Both the position numbers and the translations under genes were made by a program. A model generated the notes under the pieces. That model saw only the letters and a list, made by a program, of their open reading frames with translations. It searched no databases and had not been told where the DNA came from. Source: Candidatus Obscuribacteraceae bacterium (lineage in GTDB: Bacteria; Cyanobacteriota; Vampirovibrionia; Obscuribacterales; Obscuribacteraceae). Taken from it: DNA of 64,000 nt. Within the stretch, counting starts at the first letter, position 1. Each line of letters opens with the position of its first letter. This document shows positions 8,271 to 58,655 of this stretch, piece after piece. The stretch is taken from NCBI GenBank assembly GCA_044229845.1, contig JBGASG010000003.1:32001-96000 (forward strand), in the 5' to 3' direction.

Positions 8271-8325
8271 CTGAAGTGATATCACTCTAGTGTTGGCACG
8301 AAACTACCAAGTGATATCGGTTTAG
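8271..8325. repeat. Dispersed palindrome locus, 2 copies
   Basis: CTGAAGTGATATCACTCTAG at 8271-8290 and degenerate CCAAGTGATATCGGTTTAG at 8307-8325. Confidence 0.85.
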
Positions 8326-20182: not shown

Positions 20183-20272
20183 CTAAAGTGATATCACTCC
20201 AGGTTTCGCCGCCAGAACTGAAGTGATATCACTCCAGGTTTCGTCGCCTAAGCTAAAGTGATATCACTTTAG
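20183..20272. repeat. Dispersed palindrome locus, 3 copies at 35-bp period
   Basis: CTAAAGTGATATCACTCCAG (20183), CTGAAGTGATATCACTCCAG (20218) and CTAAAGTGATATCACTTTAG (20253), between convergent genes. Confidence 0.95.
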
Positions 20273-22564: not shown

Positions 22565-23281
22565 ATGAACACCCAGTCGCTGATTGGCGCCCTGCTCGGC
22601 GCGTTTCTGTTTTGCGCAGCGCCATGCCTGGCAGAGGATCCGGCTTCATCCCCGGCACCATCAACGACTTCCAGCTCCACCGGCACAACCGCTGATCCGC
22701 AAAGCACAAACCAGTCATTGAGTGGGCAGGTGCAACTCGTGGAAGTCAACCTTGCCACTTTGCGCGACTTGGGATTGGATATCAAACGCGTACAGCACGG
22801 CGCCACCGCCCTCTACGACGAAGCTAGCCGCCAGCCGGTCAGCCTGCAAACTATGCCGGAGGTTGTGGGACTGAACACGGTTATCCCTGTTGTGACTGGT
22901 TTCACCGGCGGTGGCTACTTGCCGCCCAGGAAATCGGCGGTCGACAACGCAATGGAGGCCATCGAACCCTGGATTGACATGGCTAAATCCTCAGTCGACG
23001 CCATCACAGAAGGTCATAAGAAGCTCGACCTGGACGAAGCCACTCAGGAAGAACTGGCGCCGCAATTCAAGAAGTGGTCCACGCTGGTAACCGAGACCTA
23101 CGGACACCTGCAAGTTCTGAAAGGTCTCACCAAAGGCCCTGGTTATGACAACCAGGCGATCGCCGATCAGGCAACCGCAATCAATCGAGAAACAAAAGAC
23201 CTGGATCGAGTGCGACGCGAAGTCTACAAAGTGCTTCAGAGAGAAGGAAAAGAGGCCCGCAAATCCAAAAAGAAAAGCTGA
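22565..23281 (+). CDS. Secreted helical hypothetical protein
   Basis: Signal peptide (..AAPCLA) and RBS GAGGT. Confidence 0.75.
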   Translation: MNTQSLIGALLGAFLFCAAPCLAEDPASSPAPSTTSSSTGTTADPQSTNQSLSGQVQLVEVNLATLRDLGLDIKRVQHGATALYDEASRQPVSLQTMPEVVGLNTVIPVVTGFTGGGYLPPRKSAVDNAMEAIEPWIDMAKSSVDAITEGHKKLDLDEATQEELAPQFKKWSTLVTETYGHLQVLKGLTKGPGYDNQAIADQATAINRETKDLDRVRREVYKVLQREGKEARKSKKKS

Positions 23282-23297
23282 AGCGATATCACTTCAG
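23278..23297. repeat. Dispersed palindrome, 1 copy, overlapping a stop codon
   Basis: CTGAAGCGATATCACTTCAG; its TGA is the stop of 22565..23281. Confidence 0.9.
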
Positions 23298-31826: not shown

Positions 31827-31880
31827 CTGGAGTGATATCACTTCAGGTTGATGGGCAGGGCTGGAGTGATATCACTTCAG
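31827..31880. repeat. Dispersed palindrome locus, 2 copies at 34-bp period
   Basis: CTGGAGTGATATCACTTCAG at 31827 and 31861, each followed by GTTG. Confidence 0.95.
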
Positions 31881-38320: not shown

Positions 38321-39168
38321 TTATCCACCGTGAGCCTGAACCCGCCGCATCGCTCGCGAGAAAACGAAGGCGACCAGAAGGGAAAAGGCAAGCACTCCAG
38401 AGAACTGCAAAAGCAAAACCCGCAAGAACTCATCTATTGAGGGCGCAATCAGCAAACGTGCCGGTCCGTACACAATGCTGGAAAACGGCAGCGCTCGCAG
38501 GATCGGTTGCACCTGGGGAGGAAACAACTCGATCGGGATCAACATGCCACCAAGGATCATTGTCAGCCTGGAATAAATCAGGGCGATACCGGCCGTGTCT
38601 TCGATCCAGAAGGCGCACAACCCGACCAGGAAGTTGCCCAAGAAGTCGAGGACGAACGCCAGCGGCAAGGCCATAAGCAGCATCAAAAGGCCTGGCAGCG
38701 TGATCGGCTGAACGCCGACGAGCAAGATGCAGAGCACAGCGCCCACAGCCAGATTGAGAGCAAAGCGCACCAGCCGCTCTCCCATGCACACACTCAGTTG
38801 ATAGAGTGGGTATGAGAGGGGACGGATCAACTGCATGGCAACCGCCCCGGTGCGAACATCCTGATCGACGTTGGGAGCAGTGCGCGGCACGGAAAGCATA
38901 ATCGCCTCCGTCACCGCCAGGTACCAGAGCATCTGTTGCAAAGTGATTCCACCCAATCGATCGGCTGCCATTTCCGCATATGTCACCTGCCAGAGCCTGA
39001 GGAAGATGTACATAATCACGGTCAGGAAAACGACACGGCTGGCCGCTTCGCCAAAGTAATAGATGTTGGAACGGGCGGCGGTAGCCGCTCTACCCAGAGA
39101 TACTTGCCGACGTGCTTATATAAGTACTTATATAAGTTGTGTAGGTGCTTGTTGAGGAATGCTTTCAC
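38321..39168 (-). pseudogene. ABC-2 family permease with single-base frameshift near 39090
   Basis: The GTG 39168 frame gives ..KYLWV. The downstream frame gives AATAARSNIYYFGE..VVFLTVIMYIFLRLW, DVRTGAVAMQLIRP and GGMLIPIELFP. Confidence 0.75.
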
Positions 39169-40276: not shown

Positions 40277-41014
40277 GACGGTACTCCATCGCCGACGCCG
40301 GGGTGATGCCGACGCTGACGCCGATGCCGACGCCCGATGCTGGTGCATACGATGCACACGGGTGTCGCGCGGCAGATGCAAATCTGCCCGCGGGTGTGAT
40401 TTATACCGGGCGCGAATGCCAGCGTAAGCGCAATCCTGCATATGCTCAAGGGTTTATTAGCATTTGTTGCAGAGAAACTTTGTCTCAGCGGGAACAAATC
40501 CGTTCCAAAGGTCTGTCTCCTCATCCGTATTCTGCGTTTGATAAGGGATGTGCTCAATCAGGAAACGGTTGTTCGGCACTAAAATGAAGACCAACTGCCA
40601 CCACATACGGCACTGACTAGAACGCAGAATACTCGAGAATGCAAATCTCAAATCGGAGCCACTCGGCGAGAGCACCATGGAAGGTAATCAAGTCACAAGC
40701 ATTGCTAGACCTCAGTCTGCCGGCACTGTCATTGTGAACAGACCAGCTTCCATGCCGCTTTCGTCGACCGGGCACCACGGGAGGTACCAGCGTATTTTCG
40801 TCACTTCGCTGATGAGCGCTGGCGCAACCCCGAGTTGCGACTCGGGAATTCCCGGTTGGGGTTTGGCTATACTCGGCAATGAGGAGCGAACGTAGTCCGA
40901 GCGAAATCAGTCCGAATCGAACAAAGAGTAGTTCAATCTTGGTTCGGCGGTTTTTTTGCGCCTAGCTTCACTAGGCCATCGGGCTTATAAAATGTAGAGG
41001 TATAGGTGATTAAG

Positions 41015-42097
41015 ATGAGCAAGACAGTAAAGAGAGTCCTTTTCAGTGCGGTAGCGGCCACCCTGGGCGTGATACCGATGGCAATGGCGCAACAAGAAGC
41101 CACCGTCGTGGCCGCCACTCCATCCGGCTCGTTGGTCGAGCGTACCACCGTCACTTCCGCTTGCGGAAAACTTTTCACCATCGACGCCAACGCCGATGGC
41201 TTGACCGCTGAAGAGCGTGCCACAATAATTCAAAAGAACCTGGACAACGCGTTGGTCAAAGCACTGCATCGCACACCGAATGCGGTGACCGTTGAACTGG
41301 CTAACAACAATCCGACCGTCAAACTCGACGGACTACATATCGCCACGGCCGACGGTAACAGCGCCGCCCGCGCTGGCATGACACAAATGCAACTAGCCAA
41401 CAAATGGGCAGACTCGATTCGTTTCTGCCTGTCTGACACCGCAGCGATTCAAAGATACCTGTCTTCGCTGACCGGCAACTTCCCCACTAAAAAGGTGATG
41501 GTGCAGAGTCGTGAAGAAGTAGCATACATTCCAGCCGGCAAGTTCTTGCCTATCAAACTGAACAGCGCGATCAACGGCGCCACCGCTCAAGTCGGCGACA
41601 AAATTGAAGGCATCATCTCGACTGACATTCCGCTGCAGACCAGTTATTTCGCCACCCGCTACGATGCCTACATTCCTGAAGGTTCAGTGGCGGTCGGCCG
41701 TTACATCGACGCCAGCAACAACTACCTGGGCAAAGGCGCTCTCGGCATGCAGTTCGATGAAATCCGCACTCCGAGCGGCGAAAGCATTCCAATCAACGCT
41801 CATATTCTGGGCGGACCGGGAAGCTGGGTGGTCATGAACGTCACACCTGAAAAAACCGCCTGCAGCTCGTTTGCCCGCACGCTGGAAGACAAGGGCGCCG
41901 CGGCTCTGCCGGTTCGTGCCAGCATCTGTGGTGGATGGCGCGGGTATCCGATCGCGCAAGGTCCCAACATGCCCTATCAAAAGATGACCTTGACCCGTAA
42001 AGCACCGATCGCAGTCTCCGCCGGCACGCCGATGATTCTGCAGATGACTGCTCCGACCGCACTTTCGCTGGTCACTGACGGCGCCTCCGTCATGTAG
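41015..42097 (+). CDS. Secreted protein with C-terminal TrbI/VirB10-like beta domain
   Basis: Signal peptide (AMA); IPAG..LPIKL...AQVGD...IPEGS...G...FDEI pattern. Confidence 0.7.
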   Translation: MSKTVKRVLFSAVAATLGVIPMAMAQQEATVVAATPSGSLVERTTVTSACGKLFTIDANADGLTAEERATIIQKNLDNALVKALHRTPNAVTVELANNNPTVKLDGLHIATADGNSAARAGMTQMQLANKWADSIRFCLSDTAAIQRYLSSLTGNFPTKKVMVQSREEVAYIPAGKFLPIKLNSAINGATAQVGDKIEGIISTDIPLQTSYFATRYDAYIPEGSVAVGRYIDASNNYLGKGALGMQFDEIRTPSGESIPINAHILGGPGSWVVMNVTPEKTACSSFARTLEDKGAAALPVRASICGGWRGYPIAQGPNMPYQKMTLTRKAPIAVSAGTPMILQMTAPTALSLVTDGASVM

Positions 42098-42162
42098 TCG
42101 CGAGAGAAGCGAATCAGTCAGTATCATCAAAAGAAATCATCGAAGATTTAGAGGAAATAGAA

Positions 42163-43077
42163 ATGAAACTTCAATTGAAAACACTCTTGATTGTAGCGGC
42201 GACTGTAAGTATGTCCGCTCCAGCCTTCGCCCAATTCGCGAAGGGATCATCCGTAACCATGGGCAACCAGCCTATCTTCAATCTGCAAGCCGGCGGCGGT
42301 TTCACATCGGAGAAACGTGCCTGGATCACCCAAGATCGCCTCGACAACGCGCTCGTTCTGTCGAACGATAAGTCACCGTCGGCGGTGAACATCGACCGCC
42401 GGAACGGCGCCATCATCGTCACGCTGGGCGGACGTGAGGTAGTGACTGCCTCTTCTGAAGGACAAGCTCAAGAAATTGCCGGTTCTATCAAGAACTTCTT
42501 GTCCGATTCGTCCAGAACAGAAGCCTACATTGCCCAGCTCAAGGATCCAAATCCGGTGGCTTCCAATGTGGCCGTGCTCGAGCGCCGTCTCTACTTGCCT
42601 GCCAATGCAGTATTGCCGCTCTCCTTCCTGACTGAAGTGAACAGCGAGACTGCACACGCCGGCGACCGAATTGAAGCCGTGCTGACGTCCGATTATGCGG
42701 TCGGAGGTTACGTAGTTCCTCAAGGTGCCAAAGTTATCGGCTTCCTGCATGAAACCGAACCAGGCGCCTTCCTGGTCTCCTTCAGTGAACTGAAGATGCC
42801 CACCGGCACGGTGGTTCCAATCACCGCCACGTTGACTCACGCGGCCGTTGTGGAAGCCAGCGCTCCTAAGGCAGTCTGCACGCTGGGTCTGCCAGCCGGA
42901 CCGACAGGCGATTGCCGTCATCCGTCGACGATCGCTATCGGCGGACTGGGTGGACCGGGCGCGAAACTGATCGTGCGCCGCGGCACCAACATGGTGATTG
43001 CCGCGGGTCAGCCGTTCGGGTTGCTGTTCGAGCGTCCCACGTCGGTGGCGGTCGTGGTCCGCGAAACCCACATGTAA
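42163..43077 (+). CDS. Secreted paralogue of the preceding gene
   Basis: Signal peptide (AFA), shared QxxLDNALV motif and LPA...AHAGD...VPQGAKVIG pattern. Confidence 0.7.
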   Translation: MKLQLKTLLIVAATVSMSAPAFAQFAKGSSVTMGNQPIFNLQAGGGFTSEKRAWITQDRLDNALVLSNDKSPSAVNIDRRNGAIIVTLGGREVVTASSEGQAQEIAGSIKNFLSDSSRTEAYIAQLKDPNPVASNVAVLERRLYLPANAVLPLSFLTEVNSETAHAGDRIEAVLTSDYAVGGYVVPQGAKVIGFLHETEPGAFLVSFSELKMPTGTVVPITATLTHAAVVEASAPKAVCTLGLPAGPTGDCRHPSTIAIGGLGGPGAKLIVRRGTNMVIAAGQPFGLLFERPTSVAVVVRETHM

Positions 43078-43194: not shown

Positions 43195-43244
43195 CTGGAG
43201 TGATATCACTTGAGGCTCGGTAGTCTGCAGTGATATCACTCCAG
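43195..43244. repeat. Dispersed palindrome locus, 2 copies at 30-bp period
   Basis: CTGGAGTGATATCACTTGAG (43195) and CTGCAGTGATATCACTCCAG (43225). Confidence 0.92.
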
Positions 43245-43520
43245 GATCGTGAGTCGCCCGGGTTCCTGCACTTCGTTTCGGTTGACCGCATTGAGTTCGA
43301 ACTGGGATAAGCAATCACGGTGGCAAACGGATGCCGTCGCACGCATGGCTGAGAGGGCAAAAGGTGCAGTTTATCGAATCCTTTTGCGATTATTCAGAGA
43401 CGATTTGCACTCAAAAAGCGTCCTCATGTTCCATCGTTCGCTGCTTGGAAATAGGACAGACGGTGATCTGCCTGCTGAGTTAAGAGGACGGCCGACACTT
43501 GGAGAACTCGAAAAAAACAG

Positions 43521-44579
43521 TCACAAGATGGCAATCAAAGGTGGGGAAACATAGTTGCGGATATCCGCTTTCGTTATAGCGTCAGCCGCAATACAAGACT
43601 CCAATAAAGTACCTTCCGGCCAGCGAACGGACTCGGCGAAGTATGAATAGAGACAGATGTAATGTTGGAGATACTTCCTGCTAATGCCTTGAAACTGCAA
43701 CTGAATAAACTCAATTGCATTATTGACCTTTCGGCGCACATCGTCGGATAACCTGACGTCCGCACTCCTGCCGGCATCTTCCTCGCGAACGCCTCCAACA
43801 CGAACATACCTTTGTGAGGGTAAACGCTGTGCAATGCCGCTTGCTTCCAAAAGCACTAGAGCTGATGCCAATACCCCCACCTCAATGCCTGTTCGCTCTT
43901 GCAAGACATCAATGGCCACAGGTTCATCAGTCAACTCGTTCACGATGTTTCTCTCCGTGTCACTGAGCTCAATCTGAGAGTCCAAGCCAATCGATATTTC
44001 GACCAGCGAATCGTTCGCATCTGAGTCCTCCTGCAAAAAGGGACTTCGCACATCGCCCCCGTCAGCTTCCGAAGCGGCACTCTGACGAGCCGGTGTTTCA
44101 ATGCTGCGTCGCGTCATCAATCCAACAAACGCTGACGACTGAATTAAGGCTCCGCCAGTAGTATTCAACATCCACTGGGACATGCTCATGACGATCTTCT
44201 TGAACATTGTCCAAGCCGTTCCATAGCTCACATTAGCTACTGTCGAAAATCTGTGAGGGTTCACCTCAACGCGCTTGTTGATTAACCAAACAGCAAACAG
44301 CCATTCGCGGACTAACTTGATACCGTCAAAAAACGTCCCAGCAGTCAGAGACACTCTTTGCCTACAGATTGAGCATTGAACAGTTCTGGCATCGAGGCGA
44401 TGCCACATACGGTTCGGGCACTTCTTCCGGCAATCCAGTTTTCGTCCAGCGGAACCAATGGCGTGCAGCACGTCTACGCAGTCGGCATCGGTCGGGAACT
44501 CTGCGTCGAACAGCTTTCTCTCGTTATACAGGGATTCTATTGCCTGTGCTTCTTGTTGAGGATTTTTTCGTTTTTTCAT
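43521..44579 (-). CDS. IS1595-transposase-derived protein: Zn-ribbon/HTH, DprA-like winged helix, IS1595 C-terminal motif; no recognisable DDE core
   Basis: FPTDADC, CSICRQRVSLTAGTFF and VSYGTAWTMFKKI; then ELTDEPVAIDVL...ALVLLEASGIAQRLPSQRY; then FQGISRKYLQHY. RBS GGAGGT precedes ATG 44579. Confidence 0.8.
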   Translation of the reverse strand: MKKRKNPQQEAQAIESLYNERKLFDAEFPTDADCVDVLHAIGSAGRKLDCRKKCPNRMWHRLDARTVQCSICRQRVSLTAGTFFDGIKLVREWLFAVWLINKRVEVNPHRFSTVANVSYGTAWTMFKKIVMSMSQWMLNTTGGALIQSSAFVGLMTRRSIETPARQSAASEADGGDVRSPFLQEDSDANDSLVEISIGLDSQIELSDTERNIVNELTDEPVAIDVLQERTGIEVGVLASALVLLEASGIAQRLPSQRYVRVGGVREEDAGRSADVRLSDDVRRKVNNAIEFIQLQFQGISRKYLQHYICLYSYFAESVRWPEGTLLESCIAADAITKADIRNYVSPPLIAIL

Positions 44580-44681
44580 AGTGAAGACCTCCACTATGTT
44601 CAACGCTGCTCGCAATCAAAAAGTTCAATTCACAAGATAAAACTGACAACCCCAGACTTTGCAAATTGATCGCCCAAGATC

Positions 44682-44701
44682 CTAAAGTGATATCACTTCA
44701 G
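44682..44701. repeat. Dispersed palindrome, 1 copy
   Basis: CTAAAGTGATATCACTTCAG about 100 bp upstream of ATG 44579. Confidence 0.92.
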
Positions 44702-48040: not shown

Positions 48041-48130
48041 CCGGAGTGATATCGCTTCAGCTCACGCGAAGTCTGGAGTGATATCGCTTCAGATCAGCGG
48101 CGATGGAGGGATAGGGTGATATCACTTCAG
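48041..48130. repeat. Dispersed palindrome locus, 3 copies
   Basis: CCGGAGTGATATCGCTTCAG (48041), CTGGAGTGATATCGCTTCAG (48073) and ATAGGGTGATATCACTTCAG (48111). Confidence 0.92.
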
Positions 48131-49479: not shown

Positions 49480-50502
49480 ATGTTGCCCCTCGAGTCTTCT
49501 TATCCGCCAATGGAAGCCACCCTCACCGAGAAGTTACCGGTTGATGAACAGGGTTGGCAATTCGAACCAAAATGGGATGGCTTCCGGTGCCTGAGCTTCC
49601 GTGACGGCAATCATCTCGACATGCGCTCCAAAAGCGGGCAGCCACTGTCTCGCTATTTCCCGGAGGTGGAGCAGGCGGTGTTGTCGCTGGCTGCGACCCA
49701 ATGTGTTCTTGATGGCGAACTGGTAATGGCGGATCCGGAGCAATTCAGTTTCGACGATCTCCTCGAACGCATTCACCCGGCGGCCAGTCGCATAAAGAAG
49801 TTGTCCGTGGAACGTCCCGCCATATATGTGATATTCGATTTGCTGGTTGACGAGCACGGGCAGTCGCTTGTGGACTTGCCGCTTGAGAAACGGCGGCAAC
49901 ATCTGGAACATTTTGCCGAACAATTTCTCCGCACCAGAGATATACAAATATCACCAGCCACGACTGACAAAGAAGTAGCCAAGAAATGGTACGACATGGT
50001 CGGGATAGAGCTTGACGGCGTGGTTGCTAAAAGACTCGGTCTGCCTTACCAGAGCGGCAACCGCAAGGGCATGGTGAAAGTTAAGAACAAAAGAACCGCC
50101 GACGTTGTGATTGGAGGATTTCGATACGCCTCAAGCGGACGCATCATCGGTTCACTGCTGCTCGGCATTTACGACAGTAACGGATTGCTGAACCATGTCG
50201 GTTTCTCCTCAGCTTTCAGCGCCCGCGAAAAGCAACAGCTGACATCGCTGCTGGAACCCTTAATAGAGCAGCCCGGGTTCACGGGAAATGCGCCAGGGGG
50301 TCCCAGTCGGTGGGCAAACAAGAGAAGCGAGGAGTGGTATCCACTGAAGACCGGACTGGTCGCCGAAGTGGAATATGACCATTTCAGTGCCGGGCGATTC
50401 CGCCATGGAACGAAGTTCCTGCGCTGGCGCCCGGATAAAACGCCGGAACAATGCACCTACGAACAGCTCAAGCTCGACAAAGGCAGTAAACGCCTAAGCT
50501 GA
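49480..50502 (+). CDS. ligC: ATP-dependent DNA ligase, LigC type
   Basis: PPMEA, FEPKWDGFR, RIHPAASR, DGVVAK, PGGPSRW and GRFRHG..FLRWRPDK. Confidence 0.9.
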   Translation: MLPLESSYPPMEATLTEKLPVDEQGWQFEPKWDGFRCLSFRDGNHLDMRSKSGQPLSRYFPEVEQAVLSLAATQCVLDGELVMADPEQFSFDDLLERIHPAASRIKKLSVERPAIYVIFDLLVDEHGQSLVDLPLEKRRQHLEHFAEQFLRTRDIQISPATTDKEVAKKWYDMVGIELDGVVAKRLGLPYQSGNRKGMVKVKNKRTADVVIGGFRYASSGRIIGSLLLGIYDSNGLLNHVGFSSAFSAREKQQLTSLLEPLIEQPGFTGNAPGGPSRWANKRSEEWYPLKTGLVAEVEYDHFSAGRFRHGTKFLRWRPDKTPEQCTYEQLKLDKGSKRLS

Positions 50503-50556
50503 AGCGATATCATTTCAGTGCGGAGGAAAAGACTCAGTGGAGTGATATCACTTCGT
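50499..50556. repeat. Dispersed palindrome locus, 2 copies; first overlaps the ligC stop
   Basis: CTGAAGCGATATCATTTCAG (50499) and GTGGAGTGATATCACTTCGT (50537). Confidence 0.88.
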
Positions 50557-53019: not shown

Positions 53020-53069
53020 CCCGAGTGATATCGCTTCAGCTTCACTCGGCTGGAGTGATATCACCGTAG
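53020..53069. repeat. Dispersed palindrome locus, 2 copies at 30-bp period
   Basis: CCCGAGTGATATCGCTTCAG (53020) and CTGGAGTGATATCACCGTAG (53050). Confidence 0.88.
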
Positions 53070-57424: not shown

Positions 57425-57501
57425 CTGAAGCGATATCACTCCAGCACAATCGATATCACTCCAGCACAAAGCGATATCACTCGGGTCCGATATCACTCGG
57501 G
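57425..57501. repeat. Dispersed palindrome locus, 4 closely packed and partly truncated copies
   Basis: CTGAAGCGATATCACTCCAG (57425), then CGATATCACT cores at 57451, 57472 and 57488. Confidence 0.9.
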
Positions 57502-57527: not shown

Positions 57528-58655
57528 CTACCTGCTGTGTGGAAACATAGAGCGAAAGTCAGTCGGCTGCTGAAGCGTGACAGGTTTCCATCCGACCGAT
57601 GCTGGCGCTCCAACTGGTGAAAGAATCTGGTACTTGCTCGTAGTGGGTGCTATCGGTTGTGAACCTGTGGCTATAGCGTTCCGCAGTGACGAAATCTCAG
57701 GGTTCTCGACTTTCATCTTTTCAAGACGTTTCACCATCTTATCGGCTTTATCCCACTGCCGATTGTCTACATAGTAGCGGGCTGCGTTGAGAATTAGCGC
57801 AACGGTGGCATTATCGTCCGGTCCATTGTCGATTTCGGATTGCTGGATCTGCTGCTTGAACTGCTTATCCGTCGCGTCCGGCGCCTCCCATGTGGTTACC
57901 TTTTTCAGTTCGCCTGCTCCATTCGGCAACGCAGGAGTCATCCGATACCGAGTCCTCTCTGAGTTTGTATTGCGCCAACCTAGATAGCGAGAGTAGGCTT
58001 GTCCGCTCGGAGTAGACGAGTTCCAACTACTTCTCGGTTGAAAATTGATGTATGGACCTGACCAGCCAGACGAAAAGGTTGGATGCCAGCTTGGCGTTGA
58101 ATTGCCAGAACCCCACTGGTTGCCACTTTGCCACTGAGCCGCAGACATAGTTCGACCGGAAGCCGAGCAAGCCCCACCCGTTCCCCAGCTGTAAGAGGTG
58201 ATGCCACTTTGTGATGTGTAAGTAGTTGGTGCTGGCGCCAGCGTATAACTGGGTGGTGCCAACGTACAACCGGGTGGCGTCCCCGCCTGAAACCCAGGAG
58301 GCCAGCCCAGTCCAAAACTCTGTAGAGGTACAAGTGCTGTTGGATGTGCAGGGAAACCCTGGGGCGATATCGACACGCCACCGCCGGACTGGCTGTGTTG
58401 AATGTACAGGTTGTTCCATCTTTTAGAACTCGACCTTAGCCGATCAGCCCGTTCTCGAGCGGCTCGTGCGCTGTCGTCAGTTGAACACAAGCCCGGAATG
58501 CCCAATCCTGTCAGAGTTACCGACAAGGACAACACCAGAGCCACTTTCGCGGCCCACAGCTGCGTAAAATCAAAGTGATATCGCTTCAGGATCGGCGCCT
58601 TTGAACTGAAGTGATATCGCTTCAGGATGTTCGTGAGTGCTGGGATATAACGCAT
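57528..58655 (-). CDS. Hypothetical exported Ser/Gly/Trp-rich protein with a TPR-like helix pair (start uncertain)
   Basis: 375-aa ORF with hydrophobic segment VALVLSLSVTLTGLG; the first ~28 codons overlap palindromes. Confidence 0.6.
   Translation of the reverse strand: MRYIPALTNILKRYHFSSKAPILKRYHFDFTQLWAAKVALVLSLSVTLTGLGIPGLCSTDDSARAARERADRLRSSSKRWNNLYIQHSQSGGGVSISPQGFPAHPTALVPLQSFGLGWPPGFQAGTPPGCTLAPPSYTLAPAPTTYTSQSGITSYSWGTGGACSASGRTMSAAQWQSGNQWGSGNSTPSWHPTFSSGWSGPYINFQPRSSWNSSTPSGQAYSRYLGWRNTNSERTRYRMTPALPNGAGELKKVTTWEAPDATDKQFKQQIQQSEIDNGPDDNATVALILNAARYYVDNRQWDKADKMVKRLEKMKVENPEISSLRNAIATGSQPIAPTTSKYQILSPVGAPASVGWKPVTLQQPTDFRSMFPHSR
58570..58625. repeat. Dispersed palindrome locus, 2 copies at 36-bp period
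   Basis: TCAAAGTGATATCGCTTCAG (58570) and CTGAAGTGATATCGCTTCAG (58606), each followed by GAT. Confidence 0.9.

Follow-up and report, generated by a model that had tools for sequence, protein, structure and literature searches.

Known Systems and the Locus under Study

In RAYT/REP systems a domesticated transposase, the active HUH enzyme RAYT, is flanked by its cognate palindromes, which are often arranged as tandem clusters; these REPs are scattered over the whole genome by insertion. MatP/matS, ParB/parS, SlmA and Noc have palindromic sites gathered in one fixed region per genome, tied to the origin or the terminus. The uptake sequences of Neisseriaceae and Pasteurellaceae are described, in the accessible text of one account, as short, competence-linked motifs that build up even in genes, as recurring peptides (PMC2817400). 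Known mobile elements, as far as the accessible parts of two reports go, disrupt or silence comM for the whole cell, blunting transformation (PMC11441513; PMC12378983). Here we analyze a stretch of 64,000 nucleotides (the window; positions below are its own) of Candidatus Obscuribacteraceae bacterium, order Obscuribacterales (contig JBGASG010000003.1, positions 32,001 to 96,000). On its reverse strand, at 43521..44579, lies a gene for a 352-residue protein derived from IS1595 transposases, without their DDE core and with a winged helix (WH) of the DprA type, at the center of a zone of palindromes built on GATATC. The original prediction, made from the letters of this locus, had not included the paralogue-specific zones, the promoter or the link to competence and ComM that we describe.

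By the features tested, the family does not belong with IS1595 elements, RAYTs, uptake sequences or MatP-type organizers, although it works partly like each. With IS1595 (ISXO2-like) DDE transposases it shares a homologous Zn ribbon, helix-turn-helix (HTH) and C-terminal helices, but it is without the DDE triad, the RNase H sheet (in the models) and the terminal inverted repeats. Its WH resembles that of DprA, the recruiter of ComM (PF17782, near-identical consensus, LxxLEL helix); however, it is fused to a predicted sequence-specific reader of double-stranded DNA and not to the single-strand-binding DprA core, and its docking of ComM is inferred. As with uptake sequences, the sites accumulate by substitution, also in genes (TDIG, PISV, RYRI), and have a competence link; unlike uptake sequences, they are palindromic, confined to zones instead of genome-wide, paralogue-specific, and apparently recognized on the chromosome, by a protein bound there, instead of during uptake. 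The comM-targeting elements share the proposed target and the proposed benefit, escape from curing, whereas a local, DNA-tethered decoy of the kind proposed here is not described in the accessible parts of PMC11441513 and PMC12378983. Gathering in one chromosomal region recalls MatP, ParB, SlmA and Noc, except that the family genes are lineage-specific, number up to about ten or more, and each have their own variant. The analogy with RAYT/REP, drawn originally, is not supported, given that the sites are local and not genome-wide, that those inside genes arose by substitution, and that no HUH (Y1) transposase domain is matched in the family by Pfam or NCBIfam. In the accessible literature on palindromes, competence and IS1595 in Obscuribacterales and Melainabacteria (including PMC9208149) and on domesticated IS1595 we found no description of such a system, subscription journals being thinly covered.

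Palindrome Zones around Each Paralogue

The genome of the window (G000, whose contigs carry C-numbers; the window lies on C18) holds five family paralogues, the other members having 25-45% identity to the 43521..44579 protein. When all 1419 GATATC cores of this genome were scored for the outer arm, 171 sites were obtained, and these form five zones around the five paralogues, on five contigs. As many as 140 of the 171 lie at most 100 kb from a paralogue, in stretches that make up 14.7% of the genome, and the density of clusters is 1.5-1.7 per 10 kb within 25 kb of a gene and 0.07 at 150-250 kb. The inner dinucleotide changes with the zone: GT on C18, GC on C3, CC on C6 and TT on C10. The window alone has 13 copies of GTGATATCAC, where 0.03 would be expected, and the genome has 43, of which 28 are on C18 and 12 on C8.

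Around the gene itself, the palindromic 20-mers originally placed on both sides, at 43195, 43225 and 44682, are all present: the gene-proximal palindrome (44682..44701) is a GT-GATATC-AC variant, and two zone sites lie downstream (43195..43244). Further zone sites of the window come in clusters of two (8271..8325, 31827..31880, 50499..50556, 58570..58625 and 53020..53069, the last a longer array in genome G072) and of three (20183..20272, with a 35-bp period, 48041..48130 and 57425..57485), besides a site at 23278..23297. The initial caveat that flanking by such dense palindromes could be chance is wrong, because the density is high precisely where the window sits, inside a zone centered on the gene.

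The orthologous zone of G072 extends to both sides of the gene: sites were present in the 10 windows sampled between about -70 and +130 kb, and the 11 windows farther out had none. Two single-contig genomes repeat the arrangement, four genes in G004 and three in G037 each being the center of a cluster of its own variant. All 21 WCCGTTAACGGW sites and 17 of the 24 TAWWCCGATATCGGWWTA sites of G004, and 11/12 sites of G037, fall within about 150 kb of a family gene (19/19, 15/22 and 9/10 without the two gene-proximal sites counted per pattern, from which the patterns had been designed). Of 107 genomes in the order, 89 have full-length members (best E below 1e-30), and the remaining 18 gave DprA- or IS-level matches only, with no family member found; a sample of 150 genomes from elsewhere in the phylum yielded none either (E 1e-35). 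As to the co-occurrence of protein and repeat, an excess of sites of at least 2-fold over the reversed pattern was seen in 37 of the 89 genomes with the family and in 0 of the 18 without, a count in which kin are not independent. Among 40 non-redundant loci of at least 15 kb, 13 have a zone (two or more distal clusters) and five have one distal cluster, and control loci gave 2 matches in 239 kb; arm length and zone density are not correlated over these 40 loci (rho -0.17, p 0.29).

A palindrome also precedes family genes more often than chance would have it, being found 76-293 bp before the start in 73 of 80 full-length members versus 232 of 4159 control windows, by a core definition that was fixed after the sites had been inspected. 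Two of the 73 were doubtful and later dropped, and three loci are near-identical to genes of their own genome. The genomic pattern, in which a gene keeps its own sites only within about 100 kb, in paralogue-specific variants and with a readable HTH code, holds under any mechanism.

An IS1595-Derived Protein without the DDE Core

The gene is an intact open reading frame (ORF) with a strong ribosome-binding site, GGAGG (44588..44592, reverse strand), as first described, and its IS1595-like ends are likewise in place, the FPT, Zn-ribbon, SLTAGTFF, VSYGTAW and FQGISRKYLQHY motifs all being found in it. In profile-profile comparison, a family profile of 46 homologues matches five true IS1595 transposases with a probability of 99.7% (E 4.9e-26) over the Zn ribbon, the HTH and the C-terminal helices, the core between them being replaced. 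Zn ribbon and HTH occupy residues 24-140 (44160..44510, reverse strand), the predicted palindrome reader, and the C-terminal helices with GISRKYLQ (43524..43745, reverse strand) pack on the N-terminal part in the models. In a Pfam scan the 352-residue protein matched DprA_WH only (PF17782, residues 202-254, E 1.8e-9), which bears out the DprA/Smf-like WH of the original prediction, and neither Zn_ribbon_IS1595 nor DDE_Tnp_IS1595; no match to PF12762 was found in the genome, and NF033547 gave weak matches in 33 of the 46 members.

The supposed absence of the DDE core is right as to the triad, but part of the first catalytic strand is still recognizable, LIQSSAF aligning to IEMDDAY. The first catalytic Asp of IS1595 transposases falls on S148 (44136..44138, reverse strand), which is Ser in 91% of 136 representatives drawn from a homologue search without word seeds. 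In the alignment of these representatives, the other DDE positions have no conserved acidic residues, and a new motif is conserved, R158-S159-T162-H167-P168-E171 (R158 98%, H167 89%, E171 98%), as are R301, Y303 and Y307. Terminal inverted repeats are indeed missing, with no inverted match of at least 12 bases except the palindromes in the 600 bases on each side of the ORF.

In the structure model of the protein (pLDDT 83.8, pTM 0.72) the WH hangs on two disordered linkers, and a member naturally without WH was modeled as a single compact, mostly helical unit (pLDDT 93.7, pTM 0.89). Neither model contains an RNase H sheet or another five-stranded sheet, in line with the loss of the catalytic fold. 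A fold search with the full model returned winged helices as sole matches (the WH against 3maj: Z 9.9, rmsd 1.9, 56 aligned; many other winged helices tie). The model without WH reached at best Z 3.6 (ISCth4 transposase, rmsd 5.5, 143 aligned), a value that excludes no family, and gave no Foldseek match at E 0.001. As the sequence shows, the ancestor of the protein was an IS1595 transposase, which lost its DDE core and gained a WH like that of the host DprA. The earlier picture of a non-catalytic, IS1595-derived and stably inherited protein tied to the palindrome family is upheld by the profile match, S148, conservation and the upstream palindromes.

A quick tree of 93 proteins places the family as one clade beside IS1595, with paralogues often grouping by genome. 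Most of a set of 80 loci are titled Obscuribacterales or Melainabacteria, a few bear titles of other phyla, and ESM Atlas clusters of the family are labeled hypothetical. Neighboring genes are shared in 23 of 28 member pairs at 60% identity or more versus 22 of 2276 pairs below 45%, so that copies are stable within genera and, further back in time, have repeatedly moved or duplicated. When paralogues from the same genome are compared, the homology in most cases runs from the palindrome to the stop codon, three pairs going beyond; no shared downstream end or terminal inverted repeats were found among members, and no target-site duplication was seen around the copies, which are old, with ragged and undefined ends. 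True IS1595 elements (L130-L134), with terminal inverted repeats and short duplications, are represented by three near-identical copies in G037, where the duplications are of 8 bp, and by two copies with a split frame in G004. The terminal inverted repeat of the G037 elements shares just GATAT and GGTTGA with the site, stretches too short to carry weight, and the palindrome as a fused pair of IS ends was rejected.

Two further loci, L138 (G004:C1:3965214-3966210) and L149 (G072:C4 near 145696), carry genes apparently broken in or before the WH with neighboring sites kept, where assembly error is possible. Two RNA runs gave scattered short contigs, some of them on the 43521..44579 gene; palindrome joints in such contigs stem from other repeat copies and were disregarded.

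Reading of the Palindrome

Residues of the protein co-vary with bases of the upstream palindrome. Among 54 members with less than 60% identity (about 330 columns, phylogeny only partly controlled), position 5 of the palindrome correlates best with residue 118 (p 1.6e-5) and position 4 with residue 120 (p 1e-4; 42 of 47 C-type members have Ser there, and 0 of 5 T-type members), and residue 119 ranks second for position 2 (p 0.012). These three residues (44220..44228, reverse strand) are adjacent in the recognition helix, which argues for direct reading of the site by the IS1595-derived HTH. The WH is a poor candidate for site recognition, since the co-varying residues lie in the HTH and the site is also found upstream of members without WH (5/5 examined). 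Thus, the HTH rather than the WH probably reads the palindrome, and binding of the palindrome by a dimer through the HTH is, on this covariation, very likely.

Conservation and Origin of the Sites

Between G000 and G072 the core is kept in all 41 alignable clusters, with 0.2% mismatch in the core versus 4.7-5.3% in distant flanks, and copy number differs in 10 of the 41. Sites also stand at orthologous positions in genomes whose flanks are 70-84% identical. In seven loci of other genera, 22 of the 38 distal sites listed lie inside ORFs, where they encode TDIG, PISV or RYRI. Eleven in-gene sites were compared with G000, and five have a homologue there over the position; the alignment is gapless in four of these and has two single-residue gaps in the fifth. 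Gapless alignment to homologues indicates that the sites arose by substitution and were not inserted as miniature inverted-repeat transposable elements (MITEs). Judging from these alignments, they originated by substitution and are binding sites under selection or drive, as has been described for uptake sequences.

A Competence-Type Promoter and a Candidate ComM-Docking Domain

Upstream of the gene lies a promoter-like motif, TTGAACTTTTT-N12-CGT (44602..44628, reverse strand). In the form TGAAC(T/C)-N16-CGT it precedes 75 of 80 members, with a spacer of 16 without exception, and we take it to resemble ECF sigma promoters. G000 has 34 strict copies, which stand before all five paralogues and, by Pfam, before genes for ComM/YifB, ComEC, a ComF-like phosphoribosyltransferase, YraN, PriA, DnaB, an SbcC-like ATPase and an ECF sigma factor (20 proteins were scanned, dprA among them, and 5 had no match); a dnaE-like gene behind the motif was identified by eye. 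The motif is at most 300 bp from comM in 26 of 30 genomes. Judged by these upstream regions, the gene shares its promoter motif with comM, comEC, comF-like and yraN genes, and the genes behind the motif make up a candidate competence regulon in an uncultured group that is sister to the cyanobacteria.

Several other genes of this candidate sigma regulon deserve mention. It also takes in Spy-like and HTH genes. The ECF sigma gene of G000 (C4:10450-11076), which itself carries the motif, is the candidate for the sigma factor that recognizes this promoter. The dnaB gene on C18 (L155:224-2779) has an intein bearing a LAGLIDADG domain. Three similar-looking motif-bearing genes of G000 (L159, L160, L166), two with weak DUF6088 matches, are possibly other regulon passengers, and a TnpB-like ORF, recognized by eye, follows a motif copy at G000:C14:120130-121290.

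The WH of the protein (residues 200-262; 43794..43982, reverse strand; E245 at 43845) is like the C-terminal domain of the order's own DprA and is a candidate ComM-docking module. The family consensus is almost identical to that of this DprA WH, with the LxxLEL helix conserved; Glu and Leu of helix 3 are each present in 40 of 46 members, and E245 in 94% of the 136 representatives. ComM was found in 39 of 41 genomes searched, its gene in G000 being at C6:216146-217708. According to the accessible text of a preprint, the DprA WH binds ComM and recruits it to transformation intermediates, and the WH of H. pylori DprA does not bind DNA (bioRxiv 10.1101/2024.10.21.619469). The accessible parts of further reports state that ComM extends D-loops together with YraN (bioRxiv 10.1101/2024.02.06.579203), that it matters more for the gain or loss of inserts than for point changes, and that mobile islands gain by disabling it (PMC11441513; PMC12378983). 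By analogy with DprA, we consider it likely that the family WH binds the branch-migration helicase ComM.

A Proposed Local Drive on Transformation

In this context, we tentatively put forward that the protein forms a cis-acting, DNA-tethered trap for ComM which biases transformation towards site-bearing DNA near its own gene, a local molecular drive to which we would give a little less than an even chance. Palindrome, competence-type promoter and gene would make up a module acting on transformation in its own chromosomal neighborhood, with a competence-induced, sequence-specific protein presenting a ComM-docking domain on the chromosome around its gene. Transposases of insertion sequences (ISs) often act in cis, and the chances appear about equal that this protein, too, acts mainly in this way; the zone restriction would require it, and the predicted consequence is that only sites within about 100 kb would be occupied. 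ComM would be caught at the chromosome-bound sites, and D-loop extension across them hindered, such that resident site-bearing DNA, the gene included, would resist replacement or deletion by incoming DNA, and incoming site-bearing DNA would still convert site-less alleles. Sites would accumulate and persist near the gene by local molecular drive, much as uptake sequences do but confined to a zone. In a variant with the same outcome, hairpins of long perfect palindromes on incoming single strands would attract ComM and favor integration. Mere loading of ComM at resident sites would lead to faster replacement and to site decay unless the host gains, whereas trapping or blocking it would keep sites and gene without host benefit, which favors local protection. 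The zones, the recognition code, the conserved sites, those that arose inside genes, the promoter motif and the DprA-like WH speak for the proposal. So does G037, where 47 of 48 pattern matches of members without WH fall in arrays directly upstream of the genes, and a WH-bearing member has a dispersed zone.

With a little more reserve, we suggest the fuller history of a selfish chromosomal gene without transposase activity, which might have copied the competence promoter of the host and the ComM-docking domain of DprA and would tether ComM to its own palindromes in cis. Biasing transformation locally, it would over time have rewritten the surrounding 100-250 kb with paralogue-specific sites, and new copies may have been seeded by transformation. 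If the ComM link is true, this would be the first known position-specific control of transformation and the first known cis drive on a bacterial chromosome, and it would bear on whether transformation cures genomes of parasites and on the origin of motifs resembling uptake sequences.

Several observations weigh against the ComM trap. About half of the members have no zone, which it does not explain: 22 of the 40 non-redundant loci, all carrying a WH, are without a distal site within 10 kb, and eight loci of G061, a genome with ten paralogues, are essentially solitary (L141-L148; a single upstream palindrome and no zone). Variant specificity is partial, the C8 zone mixing the variants of C18 and C3 (GT/GC), and the site of another member gives 0.84 distal matches per locus versus 1.4 clusters for a member's own site; patterns of members without WH are more specific than those of members with it. 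As for the docking surface, the 43521..44579 protein has Ala at 246, against Leu in 40 of 46 relatives, and E245/L246 were equated with the published interface by helix 3 spacing, not by alignment with that DprA. As for dprA, no more than 4 of 30 genomes have the promoter motif directly upstream of it (within 300 bp), and replication, envelope and unknown genes are preceded by the motif as well. No recombination shadow was seen, G000-G072 identity being 95.5% near the genes (23 windows) versus 95.05% far from them (14 windows; p 0.63). Finally, we infer DNA binding, ComM binding and action in cis from sequence, and competence in this order is presumed from its genes.

Alternative Scenarios

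The rival that survives best, though we think it unlikely, is a host-beneficial chromosome organizer modeled on MatP/matS and ParB/parS, each paralogue bridging or compacting a local domain, perhaps in competence or stress, through host-selected sites. It would fit that palindromes cluster in a bounded zone about the gene, that the sites are conserved and that the gene is under purifying selection (dN/dS, crudely estimated, 0.22-0.23 in comparisons with two orthologues, L031 and L036), and transposase ancestry could supply the bridging. However, there is no single chromosomal landmark, the five zones of G000 lying on five contigs without a common skew switch and those of G004 at four separate places; paralogues form lineage-specific clades and change neighborhood between clades, the family was not found in 18 of the 107 genomes, and the DprA-type WH is left unexplained. 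A terminus macrodomain in particular was rejected, on the five contigs, the missing common skew switch and the four G004 zones.

More doubtful is an active enzyme with a new, non-DDE site which would nick or copy the palindrome locally, in the manner of a RAYT/REP-like writer, and so produce perfect arms, arrays and new sites. Many upstream palindromes are perfect over 20-31 bp per arm, and their arms vary by locus yet stay symmetric (60% symmetry at positions 16-20 versus 27% in permutations, 0/2000), with concerted changes in both arms among orthologues (L089, L096, L097, L102). The hairpins of two perfect ones reach -31 and -37 kcal/mol, that of the palindrome at 44682 a modest -6.6. Five members of G037 without WH (L023, L027, L135, L136, L137) have upstream tandem arrays in which a unit of 35-37 bp with the core site is repeated 10 to more than 21 times. 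The perfect arms, the arrays, the copy-number differences between G000 and G072 and the new conserved residues (R158, H167, E171, R301, Y303, Y307) would all suit a writer. Against it, the 43521..44579 protein, with its dense zone, has Ser in place of H167, the RKYLQxY motif goes back to IS1595, and in-gene sites are substitutions, not insertions, in four of the five testable cases. Moreover, the zone sites of C18 and C3 are no more symmetric than chance, and template switching at blocked forks can, by the accessible text of PMC6357072, perfect palindromes without a dedicated enzyme.

An ordinary transcription regulator or autorepressor with a local regulon is less probable again. It would make sense of the HTH, of the palindromic site upstream of the protein's own gene and of the intergenic position of 72 of the 76 clusters of G000. 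But the clusters are spread over tandem, divergent and convergent gaps roughly in proportion to gap numbers and often lie a few bases past stop codons (two had been mislabeled convergent, a crude gene caller having missed or shortened family genes). Many sites are inside genes in other genera, and neighborhoods differ between clades. Simple autoregulation via 44682, as first proposed, is also not supported by the position of the palindrome, whose center lies upstream of the -35 element without promoter overlap, at a spacing that varies from 27 to 111 bp (outlier 239; about 64 bp here), unlike a classical operator. The last scenario, neutral, MITE-like relics of a once-active IS, whose IS1595 ancestry and local hopping could yield a peaked distribution, is very improbable and already largely refuted by core conservation, protein-site covariation, origin by substitution and purifying selection on the gene.

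Neighboring Genes and Other Palindromes

Just downstream of the gene, at 41006-43077, lie two tandem, secreted-looking genes with weak TrbI-like C-termini. Two perfect palindromes without a GATATC core, with arms of 27 and 19 bp, lie inside the C3 zone of G000 (C3:170360 and C3:210768). A second recurring palindrome, CAACACTAGTGTTG, is found at G000:C8:96148, C8:475037 and C22:177848, and another, TATATAAGTACTTATATA, at 39125 of the window (G000:C18:71125) and at G000:C6:24328.

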